From positions 85,500,001 to 85,564,000 of the forward strand of contig NC_086097.1 in assembly GCF_963921235.1 (NCBI RefSeq): a stretch of DNA of 64,000 nucleotides. Direction: 5' to 3'. The DNA comes from Mobula hypostoma (taxonomy: Eukaryota). The notes below the pieces were generated by a model that was not told the origin of the DNA, did no database searches, and worked only from the letters and a program-made list of their open reading frames with translations. Shown here one piece after another: positions 17,564 to 58,870 of the stretch (position 1 is the stretch's first letter; every line of letters begins with the position of its first letter). The position numbers and the translations under genes are program-made.

Positions 17564-17657
17564 GAAAGGAAGAGGGAAGATGCCAGAATAAAAAGGTGGG
17601 GTGAAGGGGAAGGAGAATAGCTAGAAGGAGATAGGTAAAGCCAGGTAGATGAGTAAG

Positions 17658-31359: not shown

Positions 31360-34300
31360 GGAAAGGTGATTAATAGTGCTGAGGGTGAGGTAGCTAGTTT
31401 GCAAACGGAAGCAATGTGTAGTGAGGAGAGGCTGTTGATAGGGCAAAATTGCAGTCAACGAACGACAGTGTAAAAGGCGGACAAAATCGAAAAGGGTGAA
31501 TACATGACTGAGGGTGATGTATCTGTATGGCACAGTGTACAGAATAAAGTAGATAAACTTGCAACCAGGTGATTGGCAGGTATGATGTTGCAGGCATCAC
31601 TGAATCATGGCTGAAAGATTACAGCTGGGAGCTTAATGTCCAAGGATACACATTGCATCAAAAAGATAAGCAGGAAGGCTGAGGGGGTGGCATTGCTCTG
31701 TTGGCAAAGGGTGAAATCAATTCATTCAAAACAGGTGACATAGGCTCAAAAGGTGTCGAATCATTGCGGATAGAGCTAAGGAACTGCAAGGGTAAAAAGA
31801 TTCTGATGGGAGTTGTATACAGACCCCCAAACATTAGTAAGGATATGGCCTACAAATTACAACGGGAGATAGAAAATGCATGCCAAAAGGGCAATATTAC
31901 AATAGTCATGGGGGATTTCAATATGCAGGTAGATTGGGAAAATCAGGTTGGTGCTGGATTATAAGAGGGAGAATTTCTAGAGTGCCAGTGAGATGGCTTT
32001 TTAGAGCAGCTCATGGTTGAGCCCACTAGGGGATCAGTTATTCTGAATTGGGTGTTGTGCAATGAACCAGAATTGATTAGCGAAGTTAGGGTAAAAGAAC
32101 CCTTCGGGAAAAGTGATCATATCATCACTGAATTTAACCCGAAATTTGAGAAGGAGAAACTAAAGTCAAATGAATCAGCATTATTGTATGATGTATATGA
32201 TGTATGATGTATAACTGTTATATGGTTATATGGTTATTGTGGAGTGAAGCGAATTACAGAGCCATGAGAGAAGAGTTGGCCAGAATTGATTGGAAAAGAA
32301 CACTGACAGGGATGATGGCAGAGCACCAATGACTGGAATTTCAGGAAGAAAGTCGGAAGGCACAGGATATATACTGTCAAAGAGGAAGAAGTATTCTAAA
32401 GGAAAGATGTCACAACCGTGGCTAACAGGAGAAGTAAAGGCCAGCATAAAAGCCAAAGAGTGGGAATATAATAAAGCAAAAATTAGCGGGAAGTTAGAGA
32501 ATTGGGAAGCTTTTAACAACCAATACAAGGCAACTAAAAAGTCATTAAGAAGGTAGAGATGGAATACAAAAGTAAGCTAGCCAACAATATTAAAAAGATT
32601 ACCAGAAGTTTCTTCAGATACATAATGTGGAAAAGAGAGATGAGAGTGGATATCAGACTGCTGGAGAGGTAGTAATGCGGGACAACAAAATAGTGGATGA
32701 ACTGAATCAGTATTTTACATCAGTCTTCACTGTGGAAGACACTAGCAGTCAGGTGGACGTTCCAGGTGTCAGGGGGCATGGAGTGGGTGAAGTTACCATA
32801 ACTAGAGAGAAGGTTCTTGGAAAAATGAAAGGTCTGAAGGTAGATAATTCACCTAGACCAGGTGTTGTACACACCAGAGTTCTGAAAGAGGTGCTGAAGA
32901 GTTTGTGGAGGCATTAGTAATGATCTTTCAAGAATCAGTAGATTCCAGAATGGTTCCAGCAGACTGGAAAATTGCAAATGTCACTCCACTCTTCAAGAAG
33001 GGAAAGAGGCAGAAGAAAGAAAACTATAGGCCAGTTAGTCTGACCTCAGTGGTTGGGAAGATGTTGGTCTCGATTATTAAGGATGAGGTCTCAAGATACT
33101 TGGAGGCACATGATAAAATAGACCATAGTCAGCATAGCTTCCTCAAGAGAAAATCTTGCCTGACAAATTTGTTGGAATTCTTTGAAGAAATAACAAGCAG
33201 GATAAACAAAAGGGAATTGGTTGATGCTGTGTACTTGGATTTTCAGAAGGCCTTTGACAAGGTGACACACATGAGGCTGCTTAACAAGCTACGAGCCCAT
33301 GGTATTACAGAGAAGTCTCTATTATGAATAAGGCAGTGGCCGATTGGCAGGATGTAAAGAGTGAGAATAAAGGGAGCCTTTTCTGACTGGCTGCTGGTGA
33401 CTAGTGGTGGTCCACAGGGGTTAGGACCTATTCTTTTTATGTTTTATGTCCGTGATTTGGATGATGGAATTGATGGCTTAGTTGCAAAATTTACAGATGA
33501 TATAAAGATAGATTTAGGGGTAGGTAGTTTTGAGGAACATAGAACATAGAATAGTACAGCACATCACAGGACCTTCAGCCCACATTGTTGTGCCGACCCT
33601 CAAACCCGACCTCCCATATAACCACCCACATTAAATTCCTCCATATACCTGTCTAGTAGTCTCTTAAATGTCACTAGTGTATCTGCCTCCACCACTGACT
33701 CAGGCAGTGCATTCCACACACCAACTACTCTCTGAGTAAAAAACCTTCCTCTAATATCCCCCTTGAACTGCCCACCCCTTACCTTAAAGCCATGTCCCCT
33801 TGTATTGAGCAGTGGTGCTCTGGGGAAGAGGCGCTGGCTACCCACTCTATCTATTCCTCTTAATATCTTGTACACCTCTATCATGTCTCCTCTCATCCTC
33901 CTTCTCTCCAAAGAGTAAAGCCCTAGCTCCCTTAATCTCTGATCATAATGCATACTTTCTAAACCAGGCAGCATCCTGGTAAATCTCCCCTGTACCCTTT
34001 CCAATGCTTCCACATCCTTCCTATAGTGAGGCGACCAGAACTGAATACAGTACTCCAAGTGCGGCCTAACCAGAGTTTTATAGAACTCCATCATTACCTC
34101 GCGACTCTTAAACTCTATCCCTCGACTTATGAAAGCTAACACCCCATAAGCTTTCTTAACTACCCTATCTACCTGTGAGGCAATTTTCAGGGATCTGTGG
34201 ACATGTACCCCCCAATAACTCTGCTTCTCCACACTACCAAGAATCCTGCCATTTATTTTGTACTCTGCCTTGGAGTTTGTCCTTCCAAAGTGTACCACCT

Positions 34301-37300
34301 CACACTTCTCCGGGTTGAACTCCATCTGCCACTTCTCAGCCCACTTCTGCAACCTATCAATGTCTCTCTGCAATCTTCAACCATCCTCTACACTATCTAC
34401 AACACCACCAACCTTTGTGTCGTCTGCAAACTTGCCAACTCACCATTCTACCCCCACATCCAGGTCATGAACAAAAATCACGAAAAGTAGAGGTCCCAGA
34501 ACAGATCTTTGTGGGACACCACTAGTCACAACCCTCCAATATGAATGTACTCCCTCCACCACCACCCTCTGCCTTCTGCAGGCAAGCCAATTCTGAATCC
34601 ACCTGGCCAAACGTCCCTGGATCCCATGCCTTCTGACTTTCTGAATAAGCCTACCGTGTGGAACCTTGTCAAATGCCTCACTAAAATCCATATAGATCAC
34701 ATCCTCTGCACTACCCTCATCTATATGCCTGATCACCTCCTCAAAGAACTCTAGGCTTGTTAGACACGATCTGCCCTTCACAAAGCCATGCTGACTGTCC
34801 CTGATCAGACCGTGATTCTCTACATGCCCATAGATCCTATCTCCAAGAATCTTTTCCAACAGCTTTTCCACCACAGACATAAGGCTCACTGGTCTATAAT
34901 TACCCGGACTATCCTTACTACCTTTTTTGAACAAGGGGACAACATTCGCCTCCCTCCAATCCTCCGGTACCATTCCCATAGACAATGAGGGCATAAAGAT
35001 CCTAGCCAGAGGCTCAGCGATCTCTTCCCTCACCTCATGGAGCAGCCTGGGGAATATTCCGTCCAGCCCCGGGGACTTATCCGTCCTAATGTATTTTAAT
35101 AACTCCAACACCTCCTCTCCCTTAATATCAACATGCTCCAGAACATCAACCTCACTCATATTGTCCTCACTGTCATCAAGCTCCCCCTCATTGGTGAATA
35201 CCGAAGAGAAGTATTCACTGAGGACCTCACTCACTTCCACAGCCTCCAGGCACATCTTCCCACCTTTATCTCTAATTGGTCCTACCTTCACTCCTGTCAA
35301 CCTTTCGTTCTTCACATAATTGAAGAATGCTTTGGGGTTTTCCTTTACCCTACTCGCCAAGACCTTCTCATGCCCCCTTCTTGCTCTTCTCAGCCCCTTC
35401 TTAAGCTCCTTTCTTACTACTCTATATTCCTCAATAGATCCACCTGATCCTTGCTTCCTAAATCTCATGTATGTTGCCTTCTTCCACCTGACTAGATTTT
35501 CCACCTCACTTGTCACCCATGGTTCCTTCACCCTACCATTCTTTATCTTCCTCACCGAGACAAATTTATCCCTAACATCCTGCAAGAGATCTCTAAACAT
35601 CGACCACATGTCCATCGTACATTTCCCTGCAAAAACATCATCCCAATTCACACCCGCAAGTCTAGCCTTATAGCCTCATAATTTGCCCTTCCCCAATTAA
35701 AAATTTTCCTGTCCTGTCTGATTCTATCCTTTTCCATGATAATGCTAAAGGCCAGGGAGCAGTGGTCACTGTCCCCCAGATGCTCACCCACTGAGAGATC
35801 TGTGACCTGACCCGGTTTGTTACCTAATACTAGATCTAGTATGGCATTCCCTCTAGTTGGCCTGTCAACATACTGTGACAGGAATCCGTCCTGGACACAC
35901 TTAACAAACTCTGCCCCAACTAAACCCTTGGAACTAATCAGGTGCCAATTAATATTAGGGAAGTTAAAGTCACCCATGATAACAACACTGTTATTTTTGC
36001 ACCTTTCCAAAATCTGCCTCCCAATCTGCTCCTCGGTATCTCTGCTGCTACCAGGAGGTCAATAGAATACTCCCAATAGTGTAACTGCTTCCTTCCTGTT
36101 CCTGACTTCCACCCATATTGACTCAAAAGAGGATCCTGCTACATTACCCACCCTTTCTGTAGCTGTAATAGCATCCCTGACCAGTAATGCCACCCCTTCT
36201 CCCCTTTTCCCGTCTCTCTATCCCTTTTAAAGCACTGAAATCCAGGAATATTGAGAATCCATTCCTGCCTTGGTGCCAGCCAAGTCTCTGTATTGGCCAC
36301 TACATCATAATTCCATGTATGTATCCAAGCTCTCAGTTCATCACCTTTGTTCCTGATGCTTCTTGCATTGAAGTACACGCACCTTAGCCCTTCTACCTTC
36401 CTACATTTACACTCCTTAGTCTGCTTCTCTTTCCTCAAAACCTCTCTATATGTTAGATCTGGCTTTACTCCATGCACTTCTTTCACTGCCCTGTTGCTCC
36501 AGGTCCCATCCCCCTTGCAAATTAGTTTAAACCCTCCCAGTCAGGAAGTAGAGAGGCTACAAATGGGCAAAATGGCTGATGGAATACAGTGTCGGGAAGT
36601 GCACAGTCATGCACTTTGGTAGAAGAAAGGAAATCGTTGACTATTTCCTAAATGGAGAAACATACAATAGACTGAAGCACAAAGCAACTTGGGATTCCTT
36701 GTGCAGGATTCCCTAAAGGTTAATTTGAAGGTTGAGTCTGTGGTGAGGAAGCAAATACAATGTTAGCATTCATTTCAAGAGAACTAGAATATAAAGCAAG
36801 GATATAATGTTGAAACTTTATAAAGCACTGGAGAAGCCTCACTTGGAGTATTGTGAGCAGTTTTGGGCCCTTATCTTAGAAAACATGTGATGAAATTGGA
36901 GGGGATTCAAAGAAGGTTCACGAAAATGATTCCAAGTTTGAATGGCTTGTCATATGAAGAGCATCTGATGACTCTGGGCCTGTATTCACTAGAATTCAGA
37001 AGAATGAGGTGTGACCTCATTGAAACCTATTGAATGGTGAAAGGCCTTGATAGAGTGGATGTGGAGATGATGTTTCCTATGGTGGAAGAGTCTAAGACCA
37101 GAAGACACAGCCTCAGAATAGAGGGACATAATTTTGGAATGGAGAAGAGGAGGAATTTCTTTAGCCAGAGAGTAGTGAATCTGTGGAATCTTTGCCACTG
37201 ACAGCTTTGGTGGCCAAATCTTCATGCAATGTCTAAGGCAGAAGTTGATATGTCCTTGTTTGGTCAGGGCATGACAGGATACAGGGAGAAGGCAGGAGAT

Positions 37301-37402: not shown

Positions 37403-37554
37403 TGATAACGATGCAATTATGAAGAAGTTTGAGGAGATTTGGTATGTTACCAAAGACTTTAGCAAATATCTACAGATGCACTGTGGAGAGCACAGTGGCA
37501 GGGTAGAGATACATCTCCACCAAAGGAGGTGTAGGTACTCCTTCCCACCCCTAC

Positions 37555-38774: not shown

Positions 38775-39043
38775 GCTAGCCTTGGGCAAGGTGTAGCACC
38801 TGCTTACCCTCCTGGTCAGGGTTGCGTGAAGCCATGGGAGCAGCTGGTGCGTTTCACAAGTCCTGGTTACGACATTTTCAAAGGATGATACCTCAAAAGG
38901 TGGCATCCATTATTAAGGACTTCCACCAGCCATGATTTGCTTCTTCTCATTGCTACTATCTGGGAGGAGGTTCAGGAGCCTGAAGAATTCCGCACCCCCT
39001 CATAAAACTCTCAAAGTTTTAGTAACAGCTTCTTACCCTACTA

Positions 39044-39966: not shown

Positions 39967-40163
39967 TACACACAAAATGCTGGAGGAATTCAGCAAGCCG
40001 GGCAGCATCTATGGAAAAAAGTACAGTTGATGTTTCAGGCCGAAACCCTTCAGCAGGACTAAAATTCAATTGTACTCTTTTCCATAGATGTTGCCTGGCC
40101 TGCTGAGTTCCTCCAGTATTTTGTGTGTGTTGCTCGGATTTCCAGCATCTGCAGAATTTCTCT
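39967..40163. mobile_element. Palindromic Penelope-derived insertion with a hammerhead-like motif in its loop
   Basis: Arms acacacaaaatgctggagg...gtaca / tgtac...ctccagtattttgtgtgtgt; minus-strand AGTC-CTGCTGA-AGGGTTTCGGCCT-GAAA-CATC-AACTG at ~40024-40060. Confidence 0.85.
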
Positions 40164-42217
40164 TCTTCCCCTACTCCAACAGATTTCTGAATGGTCCAGG
40201 AACGCTACCTCAATATATCTTATGCATTGCACTCTACTGCTGCTACAAAACAACAAATTTCATGACATACAGTATGTCAGTGATAATAAACCCGATTCTG
40301 ATTTCAATTTTGATTCAGGTTAGTACCCAGCTAAATCTCTGATTAACAGGGTGGAATTCCAGTAGGAATTATATTCTGTATATATCTTACTGCTAGCAAT
40401 GTCTGTGGACAAATTCTCAAAATATTCTCATGATGTTTCTTGGTTCAGCATTATAGTTCTGGAAATTTGTCCTACTGGCAAAGCTTAACGTTCATTCTGT
40501 ACTTGCCAATGCATCTTTGCAATGCACCTTCTCTGCTCCTTGCGCTGTATTAGACGGAAGAAATGCATGAGCTGTGAACTGAAGTTCTCTCTGCCAACCA
40601 TCACCACTCCTGCTCCTGTCCATTCCCACCCCTCACCACTTTCGCCTCACAATGGATCCTGCTGGTTACCTGTTTAGACAGTTGTTTTGAGAGCAGCAGC
40701 AGGGTGCAATCTTTCCTGACAGGCAGTCCTATCTGCCATATAAATAGGACGCTTCAGTGTGCCAGGTTGACAAATGCATTGTTCACAGTGATTAAGGATA
40801 AAGCTTTCTAGATGAAATAAAATTCCTGTCAACAAATTTAAAAAAGGAATTCCTTTTGCCACAGTAGATTCTGAGAGTATATTTCTAGCTTTTCTTTCAT
40901 TTTGTTTGCATTATGCAGTCACAATGAAAACTGTTAACAATGAAACAGTAAGAAGGAAGATCACTTCATTCATGCAATAATTCTATCTGATTTCTTCTTA
41001 CAGACAGGCTAAGGTTATGGTGTTAAAATGACCAAAAATTTGCATTTTTGCATTTGTCCTCAACTCCTACGTGGAAAAGAGAAAACAAGTCATCGCACTT
41101 TTGCTGCACCCAAAAAAAAACACTTGGTTGTCACTTGCACAGTCTTTAGGCCTCGTGCTAGTGTTAATCTCAGGATGGATCCCATCAGCCTGTATCAGTC
41201 CTGTTCCATCCAGTCACAGAATTACCAATGCATCCAAATCAGCACTTCTTCAAGATCAAATCATTGAAGCCACAAGCACACATCTTACTCAGGGTGGAAC
41301 AGGCGCATCAAAGGAAAACACTGAGATGCAGAATGGAGGTGGCCTGATATTGCTTGCACTGAGCAACCATGAAAAGCCTTGCCCTCATTGTAAACTCTTA
41401 ATATGTACCCTTTTTATTTGGTGATTCGGCAAACTGCGGGGATGTGATGGTATGATTATGAGTAACGATTAAGCAGGTTAGTCCCATACACACTGGATTT
41501 CAGAAGAACAAACTATGATCTCAATGAAATGCCTGTGATTCTGGAGGATTTGAAGTCGGTTGGATGAGGATATTTTCCCTGTTGGAGAAAGTTTAGAACT
41601 GCAAGCATAGTTTAAAAATACCAGGTCTACTGTTTTCAGGGGCTGTGAATCTTTGGAATTCTCTTCAATGGAGAAAATGATTCATTAAGTACGTCCAAAC
41701 ATATAAAGAAGGGAAAGGACTAGATTCCTTCAACCCAAGTCGGCTATTCTATAAGATCATGGCTGATCTATTTCTAACTTCAATTCTATGTGATTGCCTT
41801 TCACACCCTTGTCTCTCAATAATCCATCAGCCTCTGCTTTAGAAATATTTTTTCTAAGTCTAATAGTCTTTGCTTCAACTATTAAATTAAATGAGTAGCA
41901 CATAAATAAAAATAGACATAAAAAAAGTAACGAGGTGGTGTTAATGGGTCCAATGTCCATTCAGAAATCAGATGGCAGAGGGGAAGAAGCTGTTCCTGAA
42001 TTGCTGAGTGTGTGTCTTCAGGCTCCTGTACCTCCTCCCTGATAGGAACAGTGAGGAAAAAGGCATGTCCTGGGTGATGGAGGTCCTTAATGATGGATGC
42101 TGCTTTCTTGAGGCTTTGCTTCGTGAAGATGCCCTGGATGCTACGGAGGCTAGTGCCCATGATGGAACTGACTAAGTTCACAACTTTCAGCAGTTTCTAA
42201 CGATCCTCTGAAGTAGC

Positions 42218-45200
42218 CACCCACCAACCTCCACCCCCGTCCCCCACCAACCACCGTCCCCCCATCTCCTCCAGCCTCCACCCCCTCCCCCACCAACCTC
42301 TGTCCCCACCTCCCCATCAACCTCCACCCCAAAATCCCTCACCAACCTCCACCCCCTCCTCCTCCACCATCTCCACCCCACCTCCCCCACCAACCTCCAC
42401 CCCACCTCTCCCTCCTCCACCAACCTCCCCCACCAACCTCCTCCACCAAGCTCCCACACCAACCTCCCCCACCAACCACTGTCCCCCCTCCTCCTCCAGC
42501 CTCCACCCCCTCCCCCACCACCCTCTGTCCCCCACCTCCTTCACCAACCTCTGTCCCCACCTCCACTATCAACCTCCACCCGAAACTCCCCCACCAACCT
42601 CCACCCCCTCCTCCTCCACCATCCTCCATCCCCACCTCCCCCACCAACATCCACCCCACCTCCCCCTCCTCCACCAACCTCCCCCACCAACCTCCCACAC
42701 CAACCTCCTCCACCAACCTCCCCCACCAACCTCCTATACCAACCTCCCCCACCAACCTCCACCACCAACCTCCGTCCCCCAACCTCCCCCACCAACCTCC
42801 TCCACCCTCCACCGCCACGTCCCCTACCAACCTCCTCCACCAACCTCCCCCACCAATGACCTCCACCAGCCTCCCACACCAACCTCCATCCCCCAACATC
42901 CGACACCAACCTCCTCCACCAACCTCCCCCACCAACCTCCTCCACAAACCTCCGTCCCCCAACCTCCCCCACCAACCTCCCCCATCAACCTCCCACGCCA
43001 ACCTCCCCCACCAACCTCCTCCACACTCCACCCCCACCTCCCCTACCAACCTCCTCCACCAACCTCCCACATCAACCTCCCCCCCCCAACCTCCACCACC
43101 AACCTCCGTCCCCCAACCTCCCCCACCAACCTCCCATACCAACCTCCCCCACCAACCTCCTCCACCAACCTCCCCCACCAATGACCTCCAAAAACCTCCC
43201 CCCAATGACCTCCACCAACCTCCCACACCAACCTCCATCCCTCAACATCCCACACCAAACTCCCACACCAACCTCCCCCACCAACCTCCTCCACCAACCT
43301 CTGTCCCCCAACCTCCCCCACCAACCTCCCCCATCAACCTCCCACGCCAACCTCCCCCACCAACCTCCTCCACACTCCACACCCACCTCCCCTACCAACC
43401 TCCTCCACCAACCTCCCACACCAACATCCCCCACCAACCTCCACCACCAACCTCCGTCCCCCAACCTCCCCCACCAACCTCCCATACCAACCTCCCCCAC
43501 CAACCTCCCACAAGAACCTCCTCCACCAACCTCACACAAGAACTTCCTCCACCAACCTCCCACACCAACCTCCTCCACCAACCTCCGTCCCCCAACCTCC
43601 CCCATCAACCACCCCCACCAACATCCCCCACCAACCACCCACACCAACCTCCCACACCAACCTACGTCCCCCAACCTCCCCCACCAACCTCACACGCCAA
43701 CCTCCCCCACCAACCTCCTCCACCCTCCACCGCCATCTCCCCTACCAACCTCCTCCACCAATCTCCACCCCCACCTCCCCCACCAATGTCCTCCACCAAC
43801 CTCCCACACCAACCTCCATCCCCCAACATCCCACACCAAACTCCCACACCAACCTCCCCCACCAACCTCCGTCCCCCAACCTCCCCCATCAACCTCCTCC
43901 ACCAATCTCCCACACCAACCTCCCCCACCAACCTCCACCACCAACCTCCGTCCCCCAACCTCCCCCACCAACCTCCCATACCAACCTCCCCCACCAACCT
44001 CCCACAAGAACCTCCTCCACCAACCTCCCACAAGAAACTCCTCCACCAACCTCCCACACCAACCTCCACCACCAACCTCCGTCCCCCAACCTCCCCCCAC
44101 CAACCTCCCATACCAACCTCCCCCACCAACCTCCCACAAGAACCTCCTCCACCAACCTCCCACAAGAAACTCCTCCACCAACCTCCCACACCAACCTCCT
44201 CCACCAACCTCCGTCCCCCAACCTCCCCCACCAACCTCCCCCACCAACCACCCACACCAACCTCCCACACCAACCTCCTCCACAAACCTTCGTCCCCCAA
44301 CCTCCCCCACCAACCTCCCACACCAACGTCCCCCACCAACCTCCTCCACAAACCTCCATCCCCCAACCTCCCCCACCAACCTCCCAGGCCAACCTCCCCT
44401 ACCAACCTCCTCCACCAACCTCCACCCCCTACCTCCCCCACCAATGACCTCCACCAACCTCCCACACCAACCTCCATCCCCCAACATCCCACACCAACCT
44501 CCCCCACCAACCTCCCCCACCAACGTCCTCCACCAACCTCCCACACCAACCGCCATCCCCAACTTCCCACACCAACCTCCCACACCAACCTCCTCCACCA
44601 AACTCCACCCCCCACCAACCTCCTCCACCAACCTCCCACACCAACCTCCTCCACCAACCTCTGTCCCCCAAGCTCCCCCATCAACCACCCCACCAATCTC
44701 CCCCACCAACCACCCACACCAACCTCCTCCACCCTCCACCGCCACCTCCCCTACCAACCTCCGTCCCCCAACCTCCCCCACCAACCTCTCACACCAACCT
44801 CCCCCACCAACCTCCTCCACCCTCCACCGCCACCTCCCCTACCAACCTCCTCCACCAACCTCCATCCCCCAACCTCCCCCACCAACCTCCCCCTCCAACC
44901 TCCCCCTGCAACCTCCTCCACCAACCTCCCCCACCAACCTCCTCCACCAACTTCCGTCCCCAACCTCCCCTACCAACCTCCTCCACTAACCTCCCACACC
45001 AACCTCCCCTACCAATCTCCACCCCCCACATCCCCGACCAACCTTCACCCCCCAGCTCCCCACCGTCCTCCACCAACCTCCCACTCCAACCTCCATCCCT
45101 CAACTTCCCACACCAACCTCCTCCAACCTCCCACACCAACCTCCTCCACCAACCTCCACCCCCCACCTCCCCCACCAACCTCCTCCACCAACCTCCACCC

Positions 45201-48200
45201 CCCACCTCCCCCACCAACCTCCCACACCAACCTCCATCCCCCAAATTCCCATGCCAACGTCCTCCACCAACCTCCGTCATTCAACCTCCCCCACCAACCT
45301 CCCCCACCAACGTCCCCCACCAACCTCCTCCACCAACCTCCACCCCCCACCTCCCCCACCAACCTCCTCCACCAACCTCCTCCACAAAACTCCCACACCA
45401 ACCTCCGTCCCCCAACCTCCCCCACCAACCTCCTCCGCCAACCTCCACCCCCCACCTTCCCCACCAACCTCCACCCCCCACCTCCCCCATCAACATCCTC
45501 CATCAACCTCCCACACCAACCTCCATCCCCCAACTTCCCACAACAACCTCCTCCACCAAACTCCATCCTCCAACCTCCCCACCAACCTCCCCCACCAACC
45601 TCCTCCACTAACCTCCCATGCCAACCTCCCCCACCAACCTCCTCCACCCTCCACCCCCACCTCCCCCACCAACATCCTCCAACAACCTCCCCGACCAACC
45701 TCCCACACCAACCTCCTCCACCAAGCTCCATCCCCCAACCTCCCCCACCAACCTCCCCCTCCAACCTCCTCCACCAACCTCCCCCACCAACCTCCTCCAC
45801 CAACCTCCCCTACCAACCTCCTCCACTAACCTGCCACACCAACCTCCCCCACCAACCTCCACCCCCACCTCCCCAACCAACCTCCACCTCCCACCTCCCC
45901 ACCATTCTCCACCAACCTCCCACACCAACCTCCATCCCTCAACCTCCCACACTAACCTCCTCCACCAACCTCCCACACCAACCTCCTCCACCAACTTCCA
46001 CCCCCCACCTGCCCCACCAACCTCCCCCACCAACCTCCTCCACTAACCTCCCACGCCAACCTCCCCCACCAACCTCCTCCACCCTCCACCCCCACTTCCC
46101 CTACCAACATCCTCCACCAACCTCCACCCCCCACCTCCCCCACCAATGACCTCCACCAACCTCCCACACCAACCTCCATCCCCCAACATCCCACACCACC
46201 TCCACCCCCCACCTCCCCACCAACTTCCTCCACCAACCTCCCACACCAACCTCCATACCCCAAATTCCCACACCAACCTCCTCCACCAACCTCCCCCACC
46301 AACCTCCTCCAACAACCTCCCCCACCAACCTCCCACACCAATCTCCTCCACCAACCTCCGTCCCCCAAGCTCCCCCACCAACCTTCCCCCCAACCTCCCA
46401 CACCAACCTCCATCCCCCAACCTCCCCCACCAACCTCCCACATCAACCTCCCACACCAACCTCCCCTACCAACCTCCTCCAACAACCTCCCCCGCCAACC
46501 TCCCCCACCAATCTCCCCCATCAACCTCCCACACCAACCTCCTCCACCAACCTCCTCCACCAATCTCCCACACCAACCTCCTCCACCAACCTCCCACACC
46601 AACCTCCTCCACCAACCTCCGTCCCCCAACCTCCCCCACCAACCTCCCCCATCAACGTCCCACACCAACCTCCCCCACCAACCTGCTCCAACAACCTCCC
46701 CCACCAACCTCCCCCTCCAACCTCCCCCATCAACCTCCCACACCAACCTCCCCCACCAACCTCCTCCAACAACCTCCCCCACCAACCTCCCACACCAATC
46801 TCCTCCACCAACCTCCGTCCCCCAAGCTCCCCCACCAACCTCCCCCTCCAACCTCCTCCACCAACCTCCCCCACCAACCTCCTCCACCAACCTCCCCTAC
46901 CAACCTCCTCCACTAAACTCCCACACCAACCTCCCCCACCAACCTCCAAACCCCACCTCCCCGACCAACCTCCACCCCCACTTCCCCACCGTCCTCCAAC
47001 AACCTCCCCCACCAACCTCCCACACCAATCTCCTCCACCAACCTCCGTCCCCCAAGCTCCCCCACCAACCTCCCCCTCCAACCTCCTCCACCAACCTCCC
47101 CCATCAACCTCCACCCCAAAATCCCTCACCAACCTCCACCCCCTCCTCCTCCACCATCTCCACCCCACCTCCCCCACCAACCTCCACCCCACCTCTCCCT
47201 CCTCCACCAACCTCCCCCACCAACCTCCTCCACCAAGCTCCCACACCAACCTCCCCCACCAACCACTGTCCCCCCTCCTCCTCCAGCCTCCACCCCCTCC
47301 CCCACCACCCTCTGTCCCCCACCTCCTTCACCAACCTCTGTCCCCACCTCCACTATCAACCTCCACCCGAAACTCCCCCACCAACCTCCACCCCCTCCTC
47401 CTCCACCATCCTCCATCCCCACCTCCCCCACCAACATCCACCCCACCTCCCCCTCCTCCACCAACCTCCCCCACCAACCTCCCACACCAACCTCCTCCAC
47501 CAACCTCCCCCACCAACCTCCTATACCAACCTCCCCCACCAACCTCCACCACCAACCTCCGTCCCCCAACCTCCCCCACCAACCTCCTCCACCCTCCACC
47601 GCCACGTCCCCTACCAACCTCCTCCACCAACCTCCCCCACCAATGACCTCCACCAGCCTCCCACACCAACCTCCATCCCCCAACATCCGACACCAACCTC
47701 CTCCACCAACCTCCCCCACCAACCTCCTCCACAAACCTCCGTCCCCCAACCTCCCCCACCAACCTCCCCCATCAACCTCCCACGCCAACCTCCCCCACCA
47801 ACCTCCTCCACACTCCACCCCCACCTCCCCTACCAACCTCCTCCACCAACCTCCCACATCAACCTCCCCCCCCAACCTCCACCACCAACCTCCGTCCCCC
47901 AACCTCCCCCACCAACCTCCCATACCAACCTCCCCCACCAACCTCCTCCACCAACCTCCCCCACCAATGACCTCCAAAAACCTCCCCCCAATGACCTCCA
48001 CCAACCTCCCACACCAACCTCCATCCCTCAACATCCCACACCAAACTCCCACACCAACCTCCCCCACCAACCTCCTCCACCAACCTCTGTCCCCCAACCT
48101 CCCCCACCAACCTCCCCCATCAACCTCCCACGCCAACCTCCCCCACCAACCTCCTCCACACTCCACACCCACCTCCCCTACCAACCTCCTCCACCAACCT

Positions 48201-51200
48201 CCCACACCAACATCCCCCACCAACCTCCACCACCAACCTCCGTCCCCCAACCTCCCCCACCAACCTCCCATACCAACCTCCCCCACCAACCTCCCACAAG
48301 AACCTCCTCCACCAACCTCACACAAGAACTTCCTCCACCAACCTCCCACACCAACCTCCTCCACCAACCTCCGTCCCCCAACCTCCCCCATCAACCACCC
48401 CCACCAACATCCCCCACCAACCACCCACACCAACCTCCCACACCAACCTACGTCCCCCAACCTCCCCCACCAACCTCACACGCCAACCTCCCCCACCAAC
48501 CTCCTCCACCCTCCACCGCCATCTCCCCTACCAACCTCCTCCACCAATCTCCACCCCCACCTCCCCCACCAATGTCCTCCACCAACCTCCCACACCAACC
48601 TCCATCCCCCAACATCCCACACCAAACTCCCACACCAACCTCCCCCACCAACCTCCGTCCCCCAACCTCCCCCATCAACCTCCTCCACCAATCTCCCACA
48701 CCAACCTCCCCCACCAACCTCCACCACCAACCTCCGTCCCCCAACCTCCCCCACCAACCTCCCATACCAACCTCCCCCACCAACCTCCCACAAGAACCTC
48801 CTCCACCAACCTCCCACAAGAAACTCCTCCACCAACCTCCCACACCAACCTCCACCACCAACCTCCGTCCCCCAACCTCCCCCCACCAACCTCCCATACC
48901 AACCTCCCCCACCAACCTCCCACAAGAACCTCCTCCACCAACCTCCCACAAGAAACTCCTCCACCAACCTCCCACACCAACCTCCTCCACCAACCTCCGT
49001 CCCCCAACCTCCCCCACCAACCTCCCCCACCAACCACCCACACCAACCTCCCACACCAACCTCCTCCACAAACCTCCGTCCCCCAACCTCCCCCACCAAC
49101 CTCCCACACCAACGTCCCCCACCAACCTCCTCCACAAACCTCCATCCCCCAACCTCCCCCACCAACCTCCCAGGCCAACCTCCCCTACCAACCTCCTCCA
49201 CCAACCTCCACCCCCTACCTCCCCCACCAATGACCTCCACCAACCTCCCACACCAACCTCCATCCCCCAACATCCCACACCAACCTCCCCCACCAACCTC
49301 CCCCACCAACGTCCTCCACCAACCTCCCACACCAACCGCCATCCCCAACTTCCCACACCAACCTCCCACACCAACCTCCTCCACCAAACTCCACCCCCCA
49401 CCAACCTCCTCCACCAACCTCCCACACCAACCTCCTCCACCAACCTCTGTCCCCCAAGCTCCCCCATCAACCACCCCACCAATCTCCCCCACCAACCACC
49501 CACACCAACCTCCTCCACCCTCCACCGCCACCTCCCCTACCAACCTCCGTCCCCCAACCTCCCCCACCAACCTCTCACACCAACCTCCCCCACCAACCTC
49601 CTCCACCCTCCACCGCCACCTCCCCTACCAACCTCCTCCACCAACCTCCATCCCCCAACCTCCCCCACCAACCTCCCCCTCCAACCTCCCCCTGCAACCT
49701 CCTCCACCAACCTCCCCCACCAACCTCCTCCACCAACTTCCGTCCCCAACCTCCCCTACCAACCTCCTCCACTAACCTCCCACACCAACCTCCCCTACCA
49801 ATCTCCACCCCCCACATCCCCGACCAACCTTCACCCCCCAGCTCCCCACCGTCCTCCACCAACCTCCCACTCCAACCTCCATCCCTCAACTTCCCACACC
49901 AACCTCCTCCAACCTCCCACACCAACCTCCTCCACCAACCTCCACCCCCCACCTCCCCCACCAACCTCCTCCACCAACCTCCACCCCCCACCTCCCCCAC
50001 CAACCTCCCACACCAACCTCCATCCCCCAAATTCCCATGCCAACGTCCTCCACCAACCTCCGTCATTCAACCTCCCCCACCAACCTCCCCCACCAACGTC
50101 CCCCACCAACCTCCTCCACCAACCTCCACCCCCCACCTCCCCCACCAACCTCCTCCACCAACCTCCTCCACAAAACTCCCACACCAACCTCCGTCCCCCA
50201 ACCTCCCCCACCAACCTCCTCCGCCAACCTCCACCCCCCACCTTCCCCACCAACCTCCACCCCCCACCTCCCCCATCAACATCCTCCATCAACCTCCCAC
50301 ACCAACCTCCATCCCCCAACTTCCCACAACAACCTCCTCCACCAAACTCCATCCTCCAACCTCCCCACCAACCTCCCCCACCAACCTCCTCCACTAACCT
50401 CCCATGCCAACCTCCCCCACCAACCTCCTCCACCCTCCACCCCCACCTCCCCCACCAACATCCTCCAACAACCTCCCCGACCAACCTCCCACACCAACCT
50501 CCTCCACCAAGCTCCATCCCCCAACCTCCCCCACCAACCTCCCCCTCCAACCTCCTCCACCAACCTCCCCCACCAACCTCCTCCACCAACCTCCCCTACC
50601 AACCTCCTCCACTAACCTGCCACACCAACCTCCCCCACCAACCTCCACCCCCACCTCCCCAACCAACCTCCACCTCCCACCTCCCCACCATTCTCCACCA
50701 ACCTCCCACACCAACCTCCATCCCTCAACCTCCCACACTAACCTCCTCCACCAACCTCCCACACCAACCTCCTCCACCAACTTCCACCCCCCACCTGCCC
50801 CACCAACCTCCCCCACCAACCTCCTCCACTAACCTCCCACGCCAACCTCCCCCACCAACCTCCTCCACCCTCCACCCCCACTTCCCCTACCAACATCCTC
50901 CACCAACCTCCACCCCCCACCTCCCCCACCAATGACCTCCACCAACCTCCCACACCAACCTCCATCCCCCAACATCCCACACCACCTCCACCCCCCACCT
51001 CCCCACCAACTTCCTCCACCAACCTCCCACACCAACCTCCATACCCCAAATTCCCACACCAACCTCCTCCACCAACCTCCCCCACCAACCTCCTCCAACA
51101 ACCTCCCCCACCAACCTCCCACACCAATCTCCTCCACCAACCTCCGTCCCCCAAGCTCCCCCACCAACCTTCCCCCCAACCTCCCACACCAACCTCCATC

Positions 51201-54200
51201 CCCCAACCTCCCCCACCAACCTCCCACATCAACCTCCCACACCAACCTCCCCTACCAACCTCCTCCAACAACCTCCCCCGCCAACCTCCCCCACCAATCT
51301 CCCCCATCAACCTCCCACACCAACCTCCTCCACCAACCTCCTCCACCAACCTCCCACACCAACCTCCTCCACCAACCTCCCACACCAACCTCCTCCACCA
51401 ACCTCCGTCCCCCAACCTCCCCCACCAACCTCCCCCATCAACGTCCCACACCAACCTCCCCCACCAACCTGCTCCAACAACCTCCCCCACCAACCTCCCC
51501 CTCCAACCTCCCCCATCAACCTCCCACACCAACCTCCCCCACCAACCTCCTCCAACAACCTCCCCCACCAACCTCCCACACCAATCTCCTCCACCAACCT
51601 CCGTCCCCCAAGCTCCCCCACCAACCTCCCCCTCCAACCTCCTCCACCAACCTCCCCCACCAACCTCCTCCACCAACCTCCCCTACCAACCTCCTCCACT
51701 AAACTCCCACACCAACCTCCCCCACCAACCTCCAAACCCCACCTCCCCGACCAACCACCACCCCCACTTCCCCACCGTCCTCCAACAACCTCCCCCACCA
51801 ACCTCCCACACCAATCTCCTCCACCAACCTCCGTCCCCCAAGCTCCCCCACCAACCTCCCCCTCCAACCTCCTCCACCAACCTCCCCCACCAACCTCCTC
51901 CACCAACCTCCCCTACCAACCTCCTCCACTAAACTCCCACACCAACCTCCCCCACCAACCTCCAAACCCCACCTCCCCGACCAACCTCCACCCCCACTTC
52001 CCCACCGTCCTCCACCAACCTCCCACACCAACCTCCATCCCTCAACTTCCCACACCAACCTCCTCCACCAACTTCCCACACCAACATCCTCCACCAACTT
52101 CTACCCCCCACTTCCCCCACCAACCTCCTCCACCAACCTCCATCCCCAACCTCCCCCACCAACCTCCCCCATCAACCTCCCACACCAACCTCCCCCACCA
52201 ACCTGCTCCAACAACCTCCCCCACCAACCTCCCACACCAATCTCCTCCACCAACCTCCGTCCCCCAAGCTCCCCCACCAACCTCCCCCTCCAACCTCCTC
52301 CACCAACCTCCCCCACCAACCTCCTCCACTAAACTCTCACACCAACCTCCCCCACCAACCTCCACCCCCCACCTCCCCGACCAACCTCCACCCCCCACCT
52401 CCCCACCGTCCTCCACCAACCTACCACACCAACCTCCATCCCTCAACTTCCCAAACCAACCTCCTCCACCAACCTCCCACACCAACATCCTCCACCAACT
52501 TCCACCCCCCACCTCCCCCACCAACCTCCATCCCCCAAATTCCCACACCAACCTCCGTCCCTCAACCTCCCCCACCAATGACCTCCACCACCAATGACCT
52601 CCACCAACCTCCCCCATCAACCTCCATCCCCGAAATTCCCATGCCAACGTCCTCCACCAACCTCCGTCATTCAACCTCCCCCACCAACCTCCCCCACCAA
52701 CGTCCCCCACCAACCTCCTCCACCAACCTCCACCCCCCACCTCCCCCACCAACCTCCTCCACCAACCTCCTCCACAAAACTCCCACACCAACCTCCGTCC
52801 CCCAACCTGCCCCACCAACCTCCTCCGCCAACCTCCACCCCCCACCTCCCCCACCAACCTCCTCCACCAACCTCCTCCACAAAACTCCCACACCAACCTC
52901 CGTCCCCCAACCTGCCCCACCAACCTCCACCCCCCACCTTCCCCACCAACCTCCACCCCCCACCTCCCCCATCAACATCCTCCATCAACCTCCCACACCA
53001 ACCTCCATCCCCCAACTTCCCACAACAACCTCCTCCACCAAACTCCATCCTCCAACCTCCCCACCAACCTCCCCCACCAACCTCCTCCACTAACCTCCCA
53101 TGCCAACCTCCCCCACCAACCTCCTCCACCCTCCACCCCCACCTCCCCCACCAACATCCTCCAACAACCTCCCCGACCAACCTCCCACACCAACCTCCTC
53201 CACCAAGCTCCATCCCCCAACCTCCCCCACCAACCTCCCCCTCCAACCTCCTCCACCAACCTCCCCCACCAACCTCCTCCACCAACCTCCCCTACCAACC
53301 TCCTCCACTAACCTGCCACACCAACCTCCCCCACCAACCTCCACCCCCACCTCCCCAACCAACCTCCACCTCCCACCTCCCCACCATTCTCCACCAACCT
53401 CCCACACCAACCTCCATCCCTCAACCTCCCACACTAACCTCCTCCACCAACCTCCCACACCAACCTCCTCCACCAACTTCCACCCCCCACCTGCCCCACC
53501 AACCTCCCCCACCAACCTCCTCCACTAACCTCCCACGCCAACCTCCCCCACCAACCTCCTCCACCCTCCACCCCCACTTCCCCTACCAACATCCTCCACC
53601 AACCTCCACCCCCCACCTCCCCCACCAATGACCTCCACCAACCTCCCACACCAACCTCCATCCCCCAACATCCCACACCACCTCCACCCCCCACCTCCCC
53701 ACCAACCTCCTCCACCAACCTCCCACACCAACCTCCATCCCCCAAATTCCCACACCAACCTCCTCCACCAACCTCCCCCACCAACCTCCTCCAACAACCT
53801 CCCCCACCAACCTCCCACACCAATCTCCTCCACCAACCTCCGTCCCCCAAGCTCCCCCACCAACCTTCCCCTCCAACCTCCCACACCAACCTCCATCCCC
53901 CAACCTCCCCCACCAACCTCCCACATCAACCTCCCACACCAACCTCCCCTACCAACCTCCTCCAACAACCTCCACCCCCCACCTCCCCCACCAATCTCCC
54001 CCATCAACTTCCCACACCAACCTCCTCCACCAACTTCCCACACCAACATCCTCCACCAACTTCTACCCCCCACTTCCCCCACCAACCTCCTCCACCAACC
54101 TCCATCCCCCAACCTCCCCCACCAACCTCCCCCATCAACCTCCCACACCAACCTCCCCCACCAACCTGCTCCAACAACCTCCCCCACCAACCTCCCACAC

Positions 54201-57140
54201 CAGTCTCCTCCACCAACCTCCGTCCCCCAAGCTCCCCCACCAACCTCCCCCTCCAACCTCCTCCACCAACCTCCACCCCCCACCTCCCCCACCAATGACC
54301 TCCACCAACCTCCCACACCAACCTCCATCCCCCAACGTCCCCCACCGATCTCCCCCATCAACCTCCCACACCAACCTCCTCCAGCAACCTCCTCCACCAA
54401 CCTCCCACACCAACCTCCTCCACCAACCTCCGTCCCCCAACCTCCCCCACCAACCTCCCACACCAACCTCCCCCACCAACCTCCTCCAACAACCTCCCCC
54501 ACCAACCTCCCACACCAATCTCCTCCACCAACCTCCCACACCAATCTCCTCCACCAATCTCCGTCCCCCAAGCTCCCCCACCAACCTCCCCCTCCAACCT
54601 CCTCCACCAACCTCCCCCACCAACCTCCATCCCTCAACTTCCCACACCAACCTCCTCCACCAACCTCCCACACCAACATCCTCCACCAACTTCCACCCCC
54701 CACTTCCCCCACCAACCTCCCCCACCAACCTCCACCCCCTACCTCCCCGACCAACCTCCACCCCCCACCTCCCCACCATCCTCCACCAACCTCCCACACC
54801 AACCTCCTCCACCAACTTCCACCCCCCACCTCCCCCACCAACCTCCTCCACCAAACTCCATCCTCCAACCTCCCACACCAACCTCCCCCACCAACCGCCT
54901 CCACTAACCTCCCACGCCAACATCCCCCACCAACCTCCTCCACACTCCACCCCCACCTCCCCTACCAACATCCTCCACCAACCTTCACCCCCCACCTCCC
55001 CCACCAATGACCTCCACCAACCTCCCACACCAACCTCCATCCCCCAACATCCCACACCAACCTCCTCCACCAACCTCCACCCCCCACCTCCCCCACCAAT
55101 GACCTCCACCAACCTCCCACACCAACCTCCATCCCCCAACGTCCCCCACCGATCTCCCCCATCAACCTCCCACACCAACCTCCTCCAGCAACCTCCTCCA
55201 CCAACCTCCCACACCAACCTCCTCCACCAACCTCCCACACCAACCTCCTCCACCAACCTCCGTCCCCCAACCTCCCCCACCAATCTCCCACACCAACCTC
55301 CCCCACCAACCTCCTCCAACAACCTCCCCCACCAACCTCCCACACCAATCTCCTCCACCAACCTCCCACACCAATCTCCTCCACCAACCTCCGTCTCCCA
55401 AGCTCCCCCACCAACCTCCCCCTCCAACCTCCTCCACCAACCTCCCCCACCAACCTCCTCCACCAACATCCCCTACCAACCTCCTCCACTAAACTCCCAC
55501 ACCAACCTCCATCCCTCAACTTCCCACACCAACCTCCTCCACCAACCTCCCACACCAACATCCTCCACCAACTTCCACCCCCCACTTCCCCCACCAACCT
55601 CCTCCACCAACCTCCATCCCCCAACCTCCCCCACCAACCTCCCCCATCAACCTCCCACACCAACCTCCCCCACCAACCTCCTCCAACAACCTCCCCCCCA
55701 ACCTCCCACACCAATCTCCTCCACCAACCTCCGTCCCCCAAGCTCCCCCACCAACCTCCCCCTCCAACCTCCTCCACCAACCTCCCCCACCAACCTCCTC
55801 CACCAACCTCCCCTACCAACCTCCTCCACTAAACTCCCACACCAACCTCCCCCACCAACCTCCACCCCCCACTTCCCCGACCAACCTCCACCCCCCACCT
55901 CCCCACCGTCCTCCACCAACCTACCACACCAACCTCCATCCCTCAACTTCCCACACCAACCTCCCACACCAACATCCTCCACCAACTTCCACCCCCACTT
56001 CCCCCACCAACCTCCTCCACCAACCTCCATCCCCCAAATTCCCACACCAACCTCCGTCCCTCAACCTCCCCCACCAATGACCTCCACCAACCTCCTCCAC
56101 CAACCTCCACCCCCCACCTCCCCCACCAACCTCCTCCACCAACCTCCCACACCAACCTCCATCCCCCAAATTCCCACACCAACCTCCTCCACCAACCTCC
56201 GTCCCCCAACCTCCCCCACCAACCTCCCCCATCAACCTCCCACACCAACCTCCTCCACCAACCTCCCACACCAACCTCCTCCACCAACCTCCCACACCAA
56301 CCTCCTCCACCAACCTCCATCCCCCAACCTCCCCCATCAACCTCCCACACCAACCTCCCCCACCAACCTCCTCCAACAACCTCCCCCACCAACCTCCCAC
56401 ACCAACCTCCTCCACCAACCTCCTACACCAACCTCCTCCACCAACCTCCGTCCCCCAACCTCCTTCACCAACCTCCCCCACCAACCTCCTCTAACAACCT
56501 CCCCCACCAACCTCCCACACCAACCTCCTCCACCAACCTCCGTTCCCCAACCTCCCCCACCAACCTCCCCCTCCAACCTCCTCCACGAACCTCCCACACC
56601 AACCTCCCCCACCAACCTCCACCCCCCACCTCCCCGACCAACCTCCACCCCCCACCTCCCCACCATCCTCCACCAACCTCCCACACCAACCTCCTCCACC
56701 AACTTCCACCCCCCACCTCCCCCAGCAACCTCCTCCACCAAACTCCATGCTCCAACCTCCCACACCAACCTCCCCCACCAACCTCCTCCACTAACCTCCC
56801 ACGACAACCTCCCCCACCAACCTCCTCCACCCTCCACCCCCACCTCCCCTACCAACATCCTCCACCAACCTCCACCCCCCTCCCCCACCAATGACCTCCA
56901 CCAACCTCCCACACCAACCTCCATCCCCCAACATCCCACACCAACCTCCTCCACCAACCTCCACCCCCCACCTCCCCCACCAACCTCCTCCACCAACCTC
57001 CCACACCAACCTCCATCCCCCAAATTCCCACACCAACCTCCTCCACCAACCTCCCACACCAACCTCCTCCACCAATCTCCCACACCAACCTCCTCCACCA
57101 ACCTCCCACACCAACCTCCTCCACCCACCTCCTCCACCAA
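42218..57140. repeat. ~14.9 kb C/A-rich minisatellite, ~13-nt variant units (CCACCAACCTCCC / CCACCAACCTCCT / ACACCAACCTCCC)
   Basis: Direct inspection; plus strand almost devoid of G; CCAACCTCC recurs throughout. Confidence 0.98.
42316..51888. repeat. Higher-order tandem duplication, 2 x ~4786-4787 bp (42316-47102 and 47103-51888)
   Basis: Identical ORF translations at constant offsets (42317/47104; 43662/48448; 45952/50738); the marker ccccaaaatccctc occurs at ~42327 and ~47114. Confidence 0.95.
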
Positions 57141-58084
57141 CCAGACAGTGATGCAGCTGGTTAGAATGCTCTCCACAGTACATCTGTAGAAATTTCTGAG
57201 TGTCTTTGGTGACATACCAAATCTCCTTAAATTCCTGATGAAATATATCTGCTATCATGCCTTCTTTGCAGCTGCATCGATATGTTGGGTCCAGGTTAAG
57301 TCCTCAGAGACACTGACATTCAGGAACTTGAAATGTTCACTTACCACTTTTGATCCCTCTCTGAGGACTGGCATGTGTTCCCTTGTCTTACCCTTTCTGA
57401 AGTCCACAATTAATTCTTTGGTCTTATTGACATTGAGTGCAAGGTTGTTGCTGCCGTTGACACCACTCAACCAGCTGGTATATCTCACTCCTGTATGCCC
57501 TCTGTTACCATCTGAAATACTGCCAATCATAGTTGTATCATCAGTAAATTGATAGATGGCATTTGAGCTGTTCCTAGCCACACAGTCGTGGGTATAGAGA
57601 GAGGAGAGCAATGGGCTAAGCACATCTCCCTGTGGAATGCCAGGGTTGATTGTCAGAGAAGTGGAGGTGTTATTTCCAATCCACACAGTCTTCCGGTAAG
57701 GAAATGAGGATCCAGTTGCAAAGGGAGATACAGAGGCCGAGGTTCTGTAGCTTTTCAATCAGGACAGTAGAAATGATGGTGTTAAATACTGAGCTGTAGT
57801 CAATAAACAGCATTCTGACATAGGTATTTGTATTGTCCAACTGATCTAAGGCTGTGTGAAGAGCCAATAAGATTGCATCTGCTGTAGACCCATTGTGCCA
57901 ATAGGCAAATTGCAGTGGGTCCAGGACCTCGCTGAGGCAGAATTTAATTCTAGCCATGACCAACATCTCAAAGCACTTCATCAACGTAGATATGAGCAAT
58001 ACCTGATAGCATTCTCTTGGCTTTCCTAATTATTTACTGCACCTGCAAACATACCTTTGGCAAATTATGTACTTCACAGTCCAA

Positions 58085-58870
58085 ACTAAATTTATTATCC
58101 AAGTACATATATGTCACCAATACAACTCTGAGATTTGTTTTCTTGTGGGCATACTCAATAAATCCAATAACCATAATAGAATCAATGAAAGGTCACACCC
58201 AAAAGGGCAGAAAACCAGTGTGCAAAAGACAACAAACTGCAAATACAAAAGAAAAAAAAACTAATAAATAAATAAGCAATAAATATCAAGAACATGAGAT
58301 GAAGAGTACTTGAAATTAAGTCTGTAGGTTGTGGGAACAGTTCAGTAATGGGGCAAGTGAAGTTATATCCTTGGTTCAAGAGCCTGATGGTTGAGGGATA
58401 ATAATTATTCCTGAGCCCGGTGGTGTGCATCCTAAGACTCTTATACTTCCTTCCTGATGACAGTAGCAAGAAGACAGCATAGCCTGGATGATGGGAGTCC
58501 TTGCTGATGGAAGCTGCCTTTCCTGCGACAATACTCCATATGAAAGTGCTCAATAGTGAGAAAGGCTTTACCCATGACAGACTGGGCCACATCCACTACC
58601 TTTTGTAGGATTTTCCATTCAAGAGCATTGGTGTTTCCTTCCCAGGCCATGATGCAGCCAGTCAATGTACTCCCCACCACACATCTATAGAAGTTTGTCA
58701 AAGTTTTAGATGTCATGCCAAATCTTCTTGAACTTCTAAGGAAGTAGAGGTGCTTCCGTGCTTTCTTCGTAATTGCACTCACGAGCTGGGCCCAGGACAG
58801 CTCTGCTGACATTATAATACAGAGGGATTTAAAGCTATTGACCCTGTCTGCCTCTGATCCCCCAGTTGTC
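58085..58870 (-). mobile_element. Rex1/Babar-like 3' fragment
   Basis: ITKKARKHLYFLRSSRRFGMTSKTLTNFYRCVVGSTLTGCIMAW; LLSSGRKYKSL...YPSTIRLLN. Confidence 0.85.

Follow-up and report, generated by a model that had tools for sequence, protein, structure and literature searches.

How a minisatellite begins is still poorly explained: tandem repeats born from retroelements are a well-described route of origin, yet existing origin models account for only 6% of human element-derived repeats (excerpts of PMC3389668). An array of about 15 kb in the devil ray Mobula hypostoma, lying inside the reading frame of a long interspersed element (LINE), raises the question of whether such a repeat grew out of the codons that it now interrupts or was brought there from elsewhere. 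We analysed the 64,000-nt window that contains it (NC_086097.1, positions 85,500,001 to 85,564,000). A literature search, covering mostly open papers in their main texts, turned up no description of the array, nor of any minisatellite at the same position in this LINE.

One LINE copy divided by a 13-nt repeat

The array spans 42218–57140 (14,923 bp; no strand assigned), where TRF reports a period of 13, 1147.2 copies, 75% matches and a score of 15105. The first-pass annotation, made from the letters alone, had placed it at 42150..57215; the length of about 15 kb stands, and the right edge moves, as 57215 takes in 75 bp of LINE sequence beyond the stop of the array at 57140. Instead of the single minus-strand unit described there, parsing yields three main units (161, 111 and 108 out of 928 pieces) plus many variants. 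The array is strongly skewed (GC skew about −0.95), with its G strand on the LINE sense strand. G4Hunter scores of at least 1.2 are found in 88% of its windows versus 2% elsewhere, and its quadruplex motifs are mostly built of GG doublets (832 two-tier motifs, with only 2 canonical three-tier ones). A coding role was rejected: every frame holds stops, 11–15 on the plus strand and 47–50 on the minus strand, and the long open stretches are due to base composition.

To the right of the array, 57141..58008 on the minus strand forms the 5′ half of a 5′-truncated, frameshifted LINE copy. It encodes the latter half of a non-LTR element's reverse transcriptase region (RVT_1 in two pieces, E = 6e-07 and 7.5e-07), then an ALKBH8_N segment (DUF1891; E = 8.2e-08), is 62% identical to a sawfish protein (P0001) and ends at the Trp codon of CITVW. 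To the left, 41890..42217 on the minus strand forms the 3′ half, with the end of the reading frame (ATSEDR...) and a 3′ untranslated tail. Its boundary at 41890 is approximate; contigs of the LINE family accumulate from about 41920 in four sequencing runs. As first described, the minus-strand frame stops as ...RCTVESILTSCITVW at 57141 and restarts as ATSEDR*KLLKVV at 42217. Named homologs of the host are mostly fish reverse transcriptase proteins, and none of the protein matches is named Rex; the element is a putative Rex1/Babar LINE, as the first-pass annotation labelled it Rex-like. Such elements are expected to carry an AP endonuclease region and a conserved 3′ UTR, after which comes an oligonucleotide run (PMC6274825, in excerpt). 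The endonuclease is missing from the host copy because it is 5′-truncated near 58008, and what follows its reading frame is an AT-rich tail.

Three codons missing at the junction

Two alignments relate the flanks to each other. First, an in-window paralog (58520–58770) aligns at the DNA level gaplessly across the site once 9 placeholder bases are set between the flanks, ruling out an origin of the flanks from two different LINE copies. Second, among 333 homologous proteins fetched, 212 match both flanks and 211 of these show a 3-residue gap. By these alignments, the flanks are two collinear halves of one 5′-truncated LINE copy, contiguous when joined except for 9 nt, and three LINE codons are missing or absorbed between them. 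The right end reads V-W-L-V-E and the left end W-W-V-A-T; neither preserves an intact W-Y-G-G. No target-site duplication was found at the array edges, the longest word common to 42190–42225 and 57135–57170 being at most 4 nt. With no such duplication, and with 9 nt lost rather than doubled, the junctions lack the marks of a retroposed or transposed insertion. The earlier statement that no flanking LINE sequence is visibly lost or duplicated holds for duplication and needs correction for the 9 nt that are missing or absorbed.

Birth in place or capture

We think it probable, short of confident, that the array, which replaces three codons of one dead LINE copy, arose there from a short G-rich stretch. 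A stretch of this kind, putatively Trp-Tyr-Gly-Gly codons, would have slipped into a first few repeats, which would then have been remodelled to the 13-nt unit and lengthened as blocks were duplicated again and again, whether by unequal exchange between misaligned units or by template switching between them; quadruplex-like folding of the G strand, predicted from composition, may have aided the duplications. Three elements of this account are inferred: what the seed read (taken from the two nearest proteins), how slippage began, and by what mechanism the blocks were duplicated.

The identity of the missing codons is suggested by the closest homologs. Two sawfish proteins (69% and 65% identity) read YGG at the site, and the host groups with both (support 97/95) in a tree from which the gap residues were excluded and which contained no named Rex1 or Babar reference. 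Judged by these two, the nine replaced bases were probably G-rich. Just 5 of the 211 homologs carry YGG, and an in-window paralog in the same supported clade reads EGN. The annotation had pointed to another in-window copy, with TGGTATGG at 13641, as the homologous WYG site; the copy is present and reads W-Y-G-N-T-D-A-L-E-W, and WYGG itself occurs nowhere in the window, being known from the two sawfish proteins. That the stretch lost is the one expected to be G-rich, in the orientation that matches the G strand of the array, counts for birth in place.

A competing account, which we consider unlikely though deserving of serious weight, is that a double-strand break in the LINE copy was filled with a copied segment of a G-rich minisatellite already present elsewhere, its ends joined through 2–4 nt of microhomology while nine bases were lost, and that this segment then grew by the same block duplications. 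The absence of a target-site duplication, the small deletion and the short shared ends suit break repair equally well, and templated insertions at breaks are known in yeast (excerpt of PMC11724301). Capture does not predict, however, that the lost stretch should be the one expected to be G-rich and in matching orientation, and the window holds no second array, with 0 core 9-mers outside this one. Organism D, with a depth of 5.61 in the last array bin and none over most of the unique flank, faintly suggests that C-rich DNA like that of the array exists elsewhere. Further, complex, mature-looking units begin within 40 bp of the left junction and extend to it, with no simpler proto-unit present, as capture would have it.

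Capture is also favoured by the unit not being a copy of the inferred seed. Of the 32 possible ways to encode YGG, 11 match a main unit at 8/13 in their best ungapped alignment, 18 at 9/13 and 3 at 10/13; at the chance level, estimated over 2,309 LINE contexts, 57% reach 8/13, 21% reach 9/13 and 4% reach 10/13. Descent of the unit from the seed is thus only weakly indicated by sequence. Variants carrying CCATACCA, put forward as instances of the seed, do exist (for example at 43134), and were rejected as seed relics: all 8 share the same flanking context, one transition from a main unit, and therefore represent one mutation that was copied. In the Haber–Louis model, the unit is the segment between direct repeats of 5–10 nt in the ancestral site (PMC6947457, in excerpt); as read from its sequence, the inferred seed has no such direct repeat 13 nt apart, and 13 bases past the start of the Trp codon the retained flank gives Ala-Thr codons, with the start not repeated. 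The claim that the array did not insert and amplified in place is, in sum, partly supported: the geometry that it predicts is present (one element, collinear halves, a 9-nt replacement and no target-site duplication), and the likeness of unit to seed adds little.

Growth by nested block duplication

Whatever the first repeats were, the array enlarged by nested block duplications of 100–800 bp and of 4.8 kb. The largest joins a first copy at 42312..47098 to a second at 47099..51889 (neither assigned a strand), which differ by 3 substitutions and 1 single-base indel; this recent event accounts for a third of the array length. With the second 4.8-kb copy excluded, repeated exact 40-mers cover 83% of the array versus 42–55% in 20 shuffles of unit order, and the longest exact repeat is 787 bp versus 63–67 in 5 shuffles. 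The 787-bp block is present at 45438–46224 and 50224–51010, and a third, exact copy lies outside the 4.8-kb blocks at 52920..53706 (unstranded). An amplification of roughly a thousand-fold from a seed of about 13 nt, as first worded, hides these nested duplications.

The array is polar, decayed over 42218–42700 and uniform from there to 57140, and its first 500-bp bin holds 10 core 9-mers, where the other bins hold 16–29. The most decayed end (42218..42731, no strand assigned) contains an older duplication of about 250 bp, whose copies differ by 28 substitutions and 10 gap columns in 264. This oldest observed duplication, at about 10% between copies, falls within the rough age of the LINE copy, which has 18 differences from the family majority in 243 bp among the matches listed.

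The 4.8-kb duplication could instead be two alleles, or a mis-join, placed head to tail in the assembly, so that a real array would have an inflated length. We regard this as very improbable. An allelic difference could give the same 3 substitutions and 1 indel, none of the contigs among the matches listed spans the array, and depth in run X1 is absent in the last bin. On the other side, only 20–25 nt are shared at the breakpoint, which would lie below the usual assembler overlap, and the array holds further duplications, of all ages and of all sizes between 100 and 800 bp. Without the 4.8-kb block an array of about 10 kb is left, so inflation would affect its size only and not its origin. The near-identical blocks hint at recent change, and most likely the array is neutral and still unstable, is confined to one locus and serves no function.

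Other copies of the LINE and other species

The first-pass annotation suggested that copies of this subfamily could be satellite nurseries genome-wide; in its strong form, the WYGG codons of an abundant ray and shark LINE subfamily would be a G-doublet seed and the source of minisatellites again and again, which we consider distinctly improbable. If true, the protein constraint of a retroelement would plant thousands of identical repeat nurseries and provide a replicated natural experiment on minisatellite beginnings. A related account, to which we give very little credence, is that the parent LINE already bore a short repeat at the site and retrotransposed it, which would make the host a member of a repeat-bearing subfamily, or that the site expands recurrently across copies. 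Minisatellites have been spread by repeat-bearing elements in other species (excerpt of PMC6947457), and the LINE family is very large: a stretch that includes about 330 bp of it drew 65,530–70,595 contigs in each deep run, giving many chances for rare events.

Read depth speaks against both. Just before the left end of the array, the family reaches depths of 1,644 in X1, 9,061 in X5, 1,432 in X12 and 33 in X9; just inside it, in bin 42232–42275, depth falls to 2.28 in X1 (single copy 13.9), 15.5 in X5 (single copy 52.8), 0 in X12 and 0 in X9. Depth at the array start is thus at most single-copy despite more than 65,000 family contigs per deep run, and the nursery proposal is not upheld. This test (41000–42311, 84% likeness) detects only arrays at least 84% like the left end, and its filters may drop C-rich contigs. 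Additionally, both in-window paralogs that span the site are free of any repeat there.

A related species carries the same LINE insertion. Run X5 has depths of 15.5 and 21.1 in two array bins versus 2.28 and 0 in X1, the likely source run, a tentative sign that the start of the array is present in organism B, without a supporting contig among the matches listed; runs with shares of at most 0.12 were not counted as evidence of orthology. No empty site was seen, and the junction is absent among the 24 loose ends listed (1,616 more exist), with family copies flooding the region. A related-locus search of genome contigs gave 5 loci, apparently animal DNA inside bacterial assemblies; the site is visible in 2 of them, both reading YGN, and the core 9-mer is in none of the 5. 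Related-locus searches with P0001, and with the homolog alignment in viral contigs, returned none. The downstream piece of 52 residues, used as a protein query, gave 0 of 15 candidates; the satellite pattern had 0 matches in metagenome and in viral contigs, and the LINE flank motif 0 in metagenome contigs. The metagenome and viral collections are poor in host DNA, which makes these blanks uninformative.

Comparison with known element-derived repeats

Expanded simple tandem repeats of the Ms6-hm type have a high rate of length mutation in the germline or soma. Mouse Ms6-hm and Hm-2 lie in MaLR LTRs, and the (GGCAGA)n family comes from SINE B1 (Kelly 1994; Bois 1998; via excerpts of PMC6947457 and PMC9659126). 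Like these, the array described here is a long run of a short G-rich unit within a retroelement copy and is read as an expanded short motif; unlike them, it has a 13-nt unit, many interleaved variants and kilobase block duplications, its host is a LINE coding region in a cartilaginous fish, and its seed and its instability are both putative. CEB1 shares the strong G/C strand skew and the high quadruplex score (Piazza et al. 2012, PMC3486850, in excerpt), with the difference that its folding and instability were shown by experiment; our array, mostly of GG doublets, is known from sequence alone.

In humans, 7,276 tandem repeats are TE-derived, 601 of them with L1 (Ahmed and Liang 2012, PMC3389668, in excerpt). 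As in that set, we see a tandem repeat that overlaps an element copy and grew by local duplication. The human repeats were filtered at units of at least 20 bp and 95% identity, and those derived from Alu average about 2.3–2.4 units; the present array, with more than 1,100 units of 13 nt at 75% match, falls outside this filter, which is a study filter and not a biological definition. Against the at least 70% likeness of unit to consensus used in that study, our main unit matches the protein-inferred seed at 8–10 of 13 (62–77%), depending on third codon positions. Squamate SINE-derived satellites likewise grow to as many as about 1,000 units and keep element sequence at one end or at both (Vassetzky et al. 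2023, PMC10702118, in excerpt). Their unit can be recognised as part of the SINE, and they are multilocus and lean subtelomeric, whereas here the likeness of unit to element is barely above chance and one locus is known.

Finally, an array in a high-copy element offers, in principle, a known ancestral site together with thousands of unexpanded controls, and so makes origin models testable. This locus is not yet such a test: no empty site has been seen, and the unit has diverged too much from the inferred seed. It does illustrate clearly how nested duplication of blocks built a 15-kb array, and it reminds us that an array of this kind divides one element into two annotations 15 kb apart.

The array replaces nine bases of a single LINE copy

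The 13-nt minisatellite, with limits that we read from the sequence as 42218 and 57140, lies inside a dead, 5′-truncated LINE copy. The right flank of this host element (57141–58008, minus strand) consists of frameshifted coding pieces with Pfam matches to RVT_1 and ALKBH8_N, and the left flank (about 41890–42217) holds the end of the frame and the tail. The best homologs of the right flank are sawfish proteins (P0001, 62% identity), which points to cartilaginous fish. The element is a putative Rex LINE; the name Rex is on none of its homolog hits.

As the first-pass annotation had proposed, the flanks are collinear halves of one element, as protein and paralog alignments show. Of 333 proteins fetched, 212 pass score cut-offs on both flanks, and in 211 of these the Trp at 57141 and the Ala at 42217 are separated by exactly three residues (113 of the 114 both-flank proteins among the first 222). 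An in-window paralog (58520–58770) aligns gaplessly across the site once nine placeholder bases stand in for the array. Words shared by the two array edges are at most 4 nt long, so there is no target duplication. On these three observations, the array replaces nine bases; the earlier statement that the LINE lost nothing is right apart from these.

The replaced bases had been assigned to WYGG codons with the help of a paralog that actually reads WYGN. YGG occupies the gap in the two proteins nearest to the host (69% and 65% identical). In a tree that omits the gap residues, computed from two window rows and 55 proteins (chosen by flank score, then thinned), the host LINE joins them with support of 97/95. 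The same clade includes an in-window paralog with EGN, and only 5 of 211 homologs have YGG. These comparisons make Trp-Tyr-Gly all but certain, and a second Gly after it likely.

Growth by nested block duplication

Tandem Repeats Finder reports a single period-13 array of 1,147.2 copies (75% matches, score 15,105), with a G+C content of around 63% and C nearly all on the plus strand. Its composition is mixed: the three main units, each of 13 nt, account for 161, 111 and 108 of 928 parsed pieces, and the remainder include many variants of 13 and 14 nt.

The array grew by nested block duplication, as shown by its duplicated blocks and by an excess of repeated 40-mers over shuffled arrays. Segments 42312–47098 and 47099–51889 form a tandem duplication whose copies differ at three substituted positions and by one single-base indel. 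A block of 787 bp is present a third time, and blocks of 100–250 bp recur by the dozen. With the second large block removed, exact 40-mers occurring at least twice cover 83% of the array, compared with 42–55% in 20 shuffles of unit order, and exact repeats reach 787 in length, compared with maxima of 63–67 in five shuffles. Decay is greatest in the left 500 bp, where the copies of an older duplication, about 250 bp long, differ by 28 substitutions and 10 gap columns in 264; at its right end the array stays uniform as far as the junction. Unequal exchange or template switching may have caused the duplications. On the G strand, 88% of array windows reach a G4Hunter score of at least 1.2, against 2% elsewhere, and the array has only two three-tier G-quadruplex motifs; a quadruplex role, by analogy with CEB1 (PMC3486850), would be a guess.

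Possible descent of the unit from the lost codons

The inferred seed, the LINE stretch supposed to be ancestral to the unit, was compared with the main units without gaps for all 32 codon choices; the highest score is 8/13 for 11 choices, 9/13 for 18 and 10/13 for 3. Among 2,309 equal-sized contexts from four LINE pieces in the window, 57%, 21% and 4% reach 8, 9 and 10 on either strand. The evidence for descent is modest. Array variants with the 'exact seed', earlier read as its trace, lose that meaning: all eight copies share an identical flanking unit order, the duplicate block contains four of them, and a single transition separates the variant from a main unit, of whose 13 possible transitions 9 occur in the array. 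Still favouring descent are the overlap of the lost stretch with the G-rich codons, the matching strands and the polarity of the array. The inferred seed contains no 5–10-nt direct repeat framing a 13-nt unit, so the simple Haber–Louis route (PMC6947457) is inapplicable, and several slippage steps would have to be assumed between seed and unit.

That part of some other array was captured at a break is rather unlikely, with a chance too large to neglect; on both strands, the core 9-mer of the array is absent from the rest of the window. We hold it to be fairly probable that the array was born in place and then enlarged by block duplication.

Related organisms

Among 23 sequencing runs listed, four of organism A contain a share of 0.75–0.79 of the right-flank words and four of organism B a share of 0.40–0.44. 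Contigs from four runs (X1, X5, X12 and X9) align to 41000–42311. One contig of X1 is identical to the window across 968 bases; X1 is probably the window's own source and so gives no independent support. A contig of X5, from organism B, spans 41000–41973, differing at 24 letters and by 21 gap letters, and passes from unique sequence into the tail of the LINE, placing the LINE insertion before the A/B split. X12 has zero depth across most of the unique flank, and X9 yields one 242-base piece of it.

Depth in the first bin fully within the array is 2.28 in X1, 15.5 in X5 and 0 in X12 and X9; single-copy depths, where known, are 13.9 and 52.8, above those of the first array bin. Depth, without a listed contig, hints that organism B carries the array, and neither an array junction nor an empty site is among the loose ends listed. 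That assembly inflated the array's length is most improbable, and its origin would be unchanged even so.

The LINE family is very abundant, with 65,530–70,595 contigs matched per deep run and 1,983 in X9. Satellite nurseries had been envisaged genome-wide; in these four runs, at an 84% likeness cut-off and with filtering possible, other family copies show no sign of this array start, and a repeat-bearing subfamily or recurrent nursery is very unlikely to be the origin.

Other repeats in the window and in database records

In a LINE copy at 13592–14334, about 110 bp of G-rich sequence (13690–13825) are inserted roughly 45 nt downstream of the position that corresponds to the array site. The insertion matches 19267–19436 at 73% and thus looks like another interspersed repeat, not the array satellite. 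Two short pieces of the host family (37428–37492 and 38891–38986, plus strand) lie 1.4 kb apart with other repeats between, the first ending 26 nt short of the homologous site. A 761-codon stop-free frame (22517–24799, minus strand) belongs to a long repeat, a putative fairly young CR1-type LINE, that also matches 1679–5142 and 33700–34984. Three related palindromic repeats of 130–165 bp (17655–17805, 21197–21330 and 39968–40128) match their own reverse complements and are MITE-like. LINE sequence with 48–55% identity to a sawfish protein also occurs in contigs of bacterial genome assemblies (L001, L002, L003 and L005), and a LINE-type protein, P0029, is labelled Escherichia coli; these records probably contain animal host DNA.

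Relation to known element-born repeats

We found no account of this array in the literature covered, which comprised main texts and few subscription papers. Published sources list minisatellites born in mouse MaLR and B1 and human Alu elements (PMC6947457, PMC9659126), 7,276 such repeats in human, 601 with L1 (PMC3389668), arrays reaching 1,000 units from reptile SINEs (PMC10702118) and satellites related to LINE ORF2 (PMC9659126). Descent is less well proven here than in the published cases. Minisatellites born in retroelements are thus already known, and this array would be one more case.
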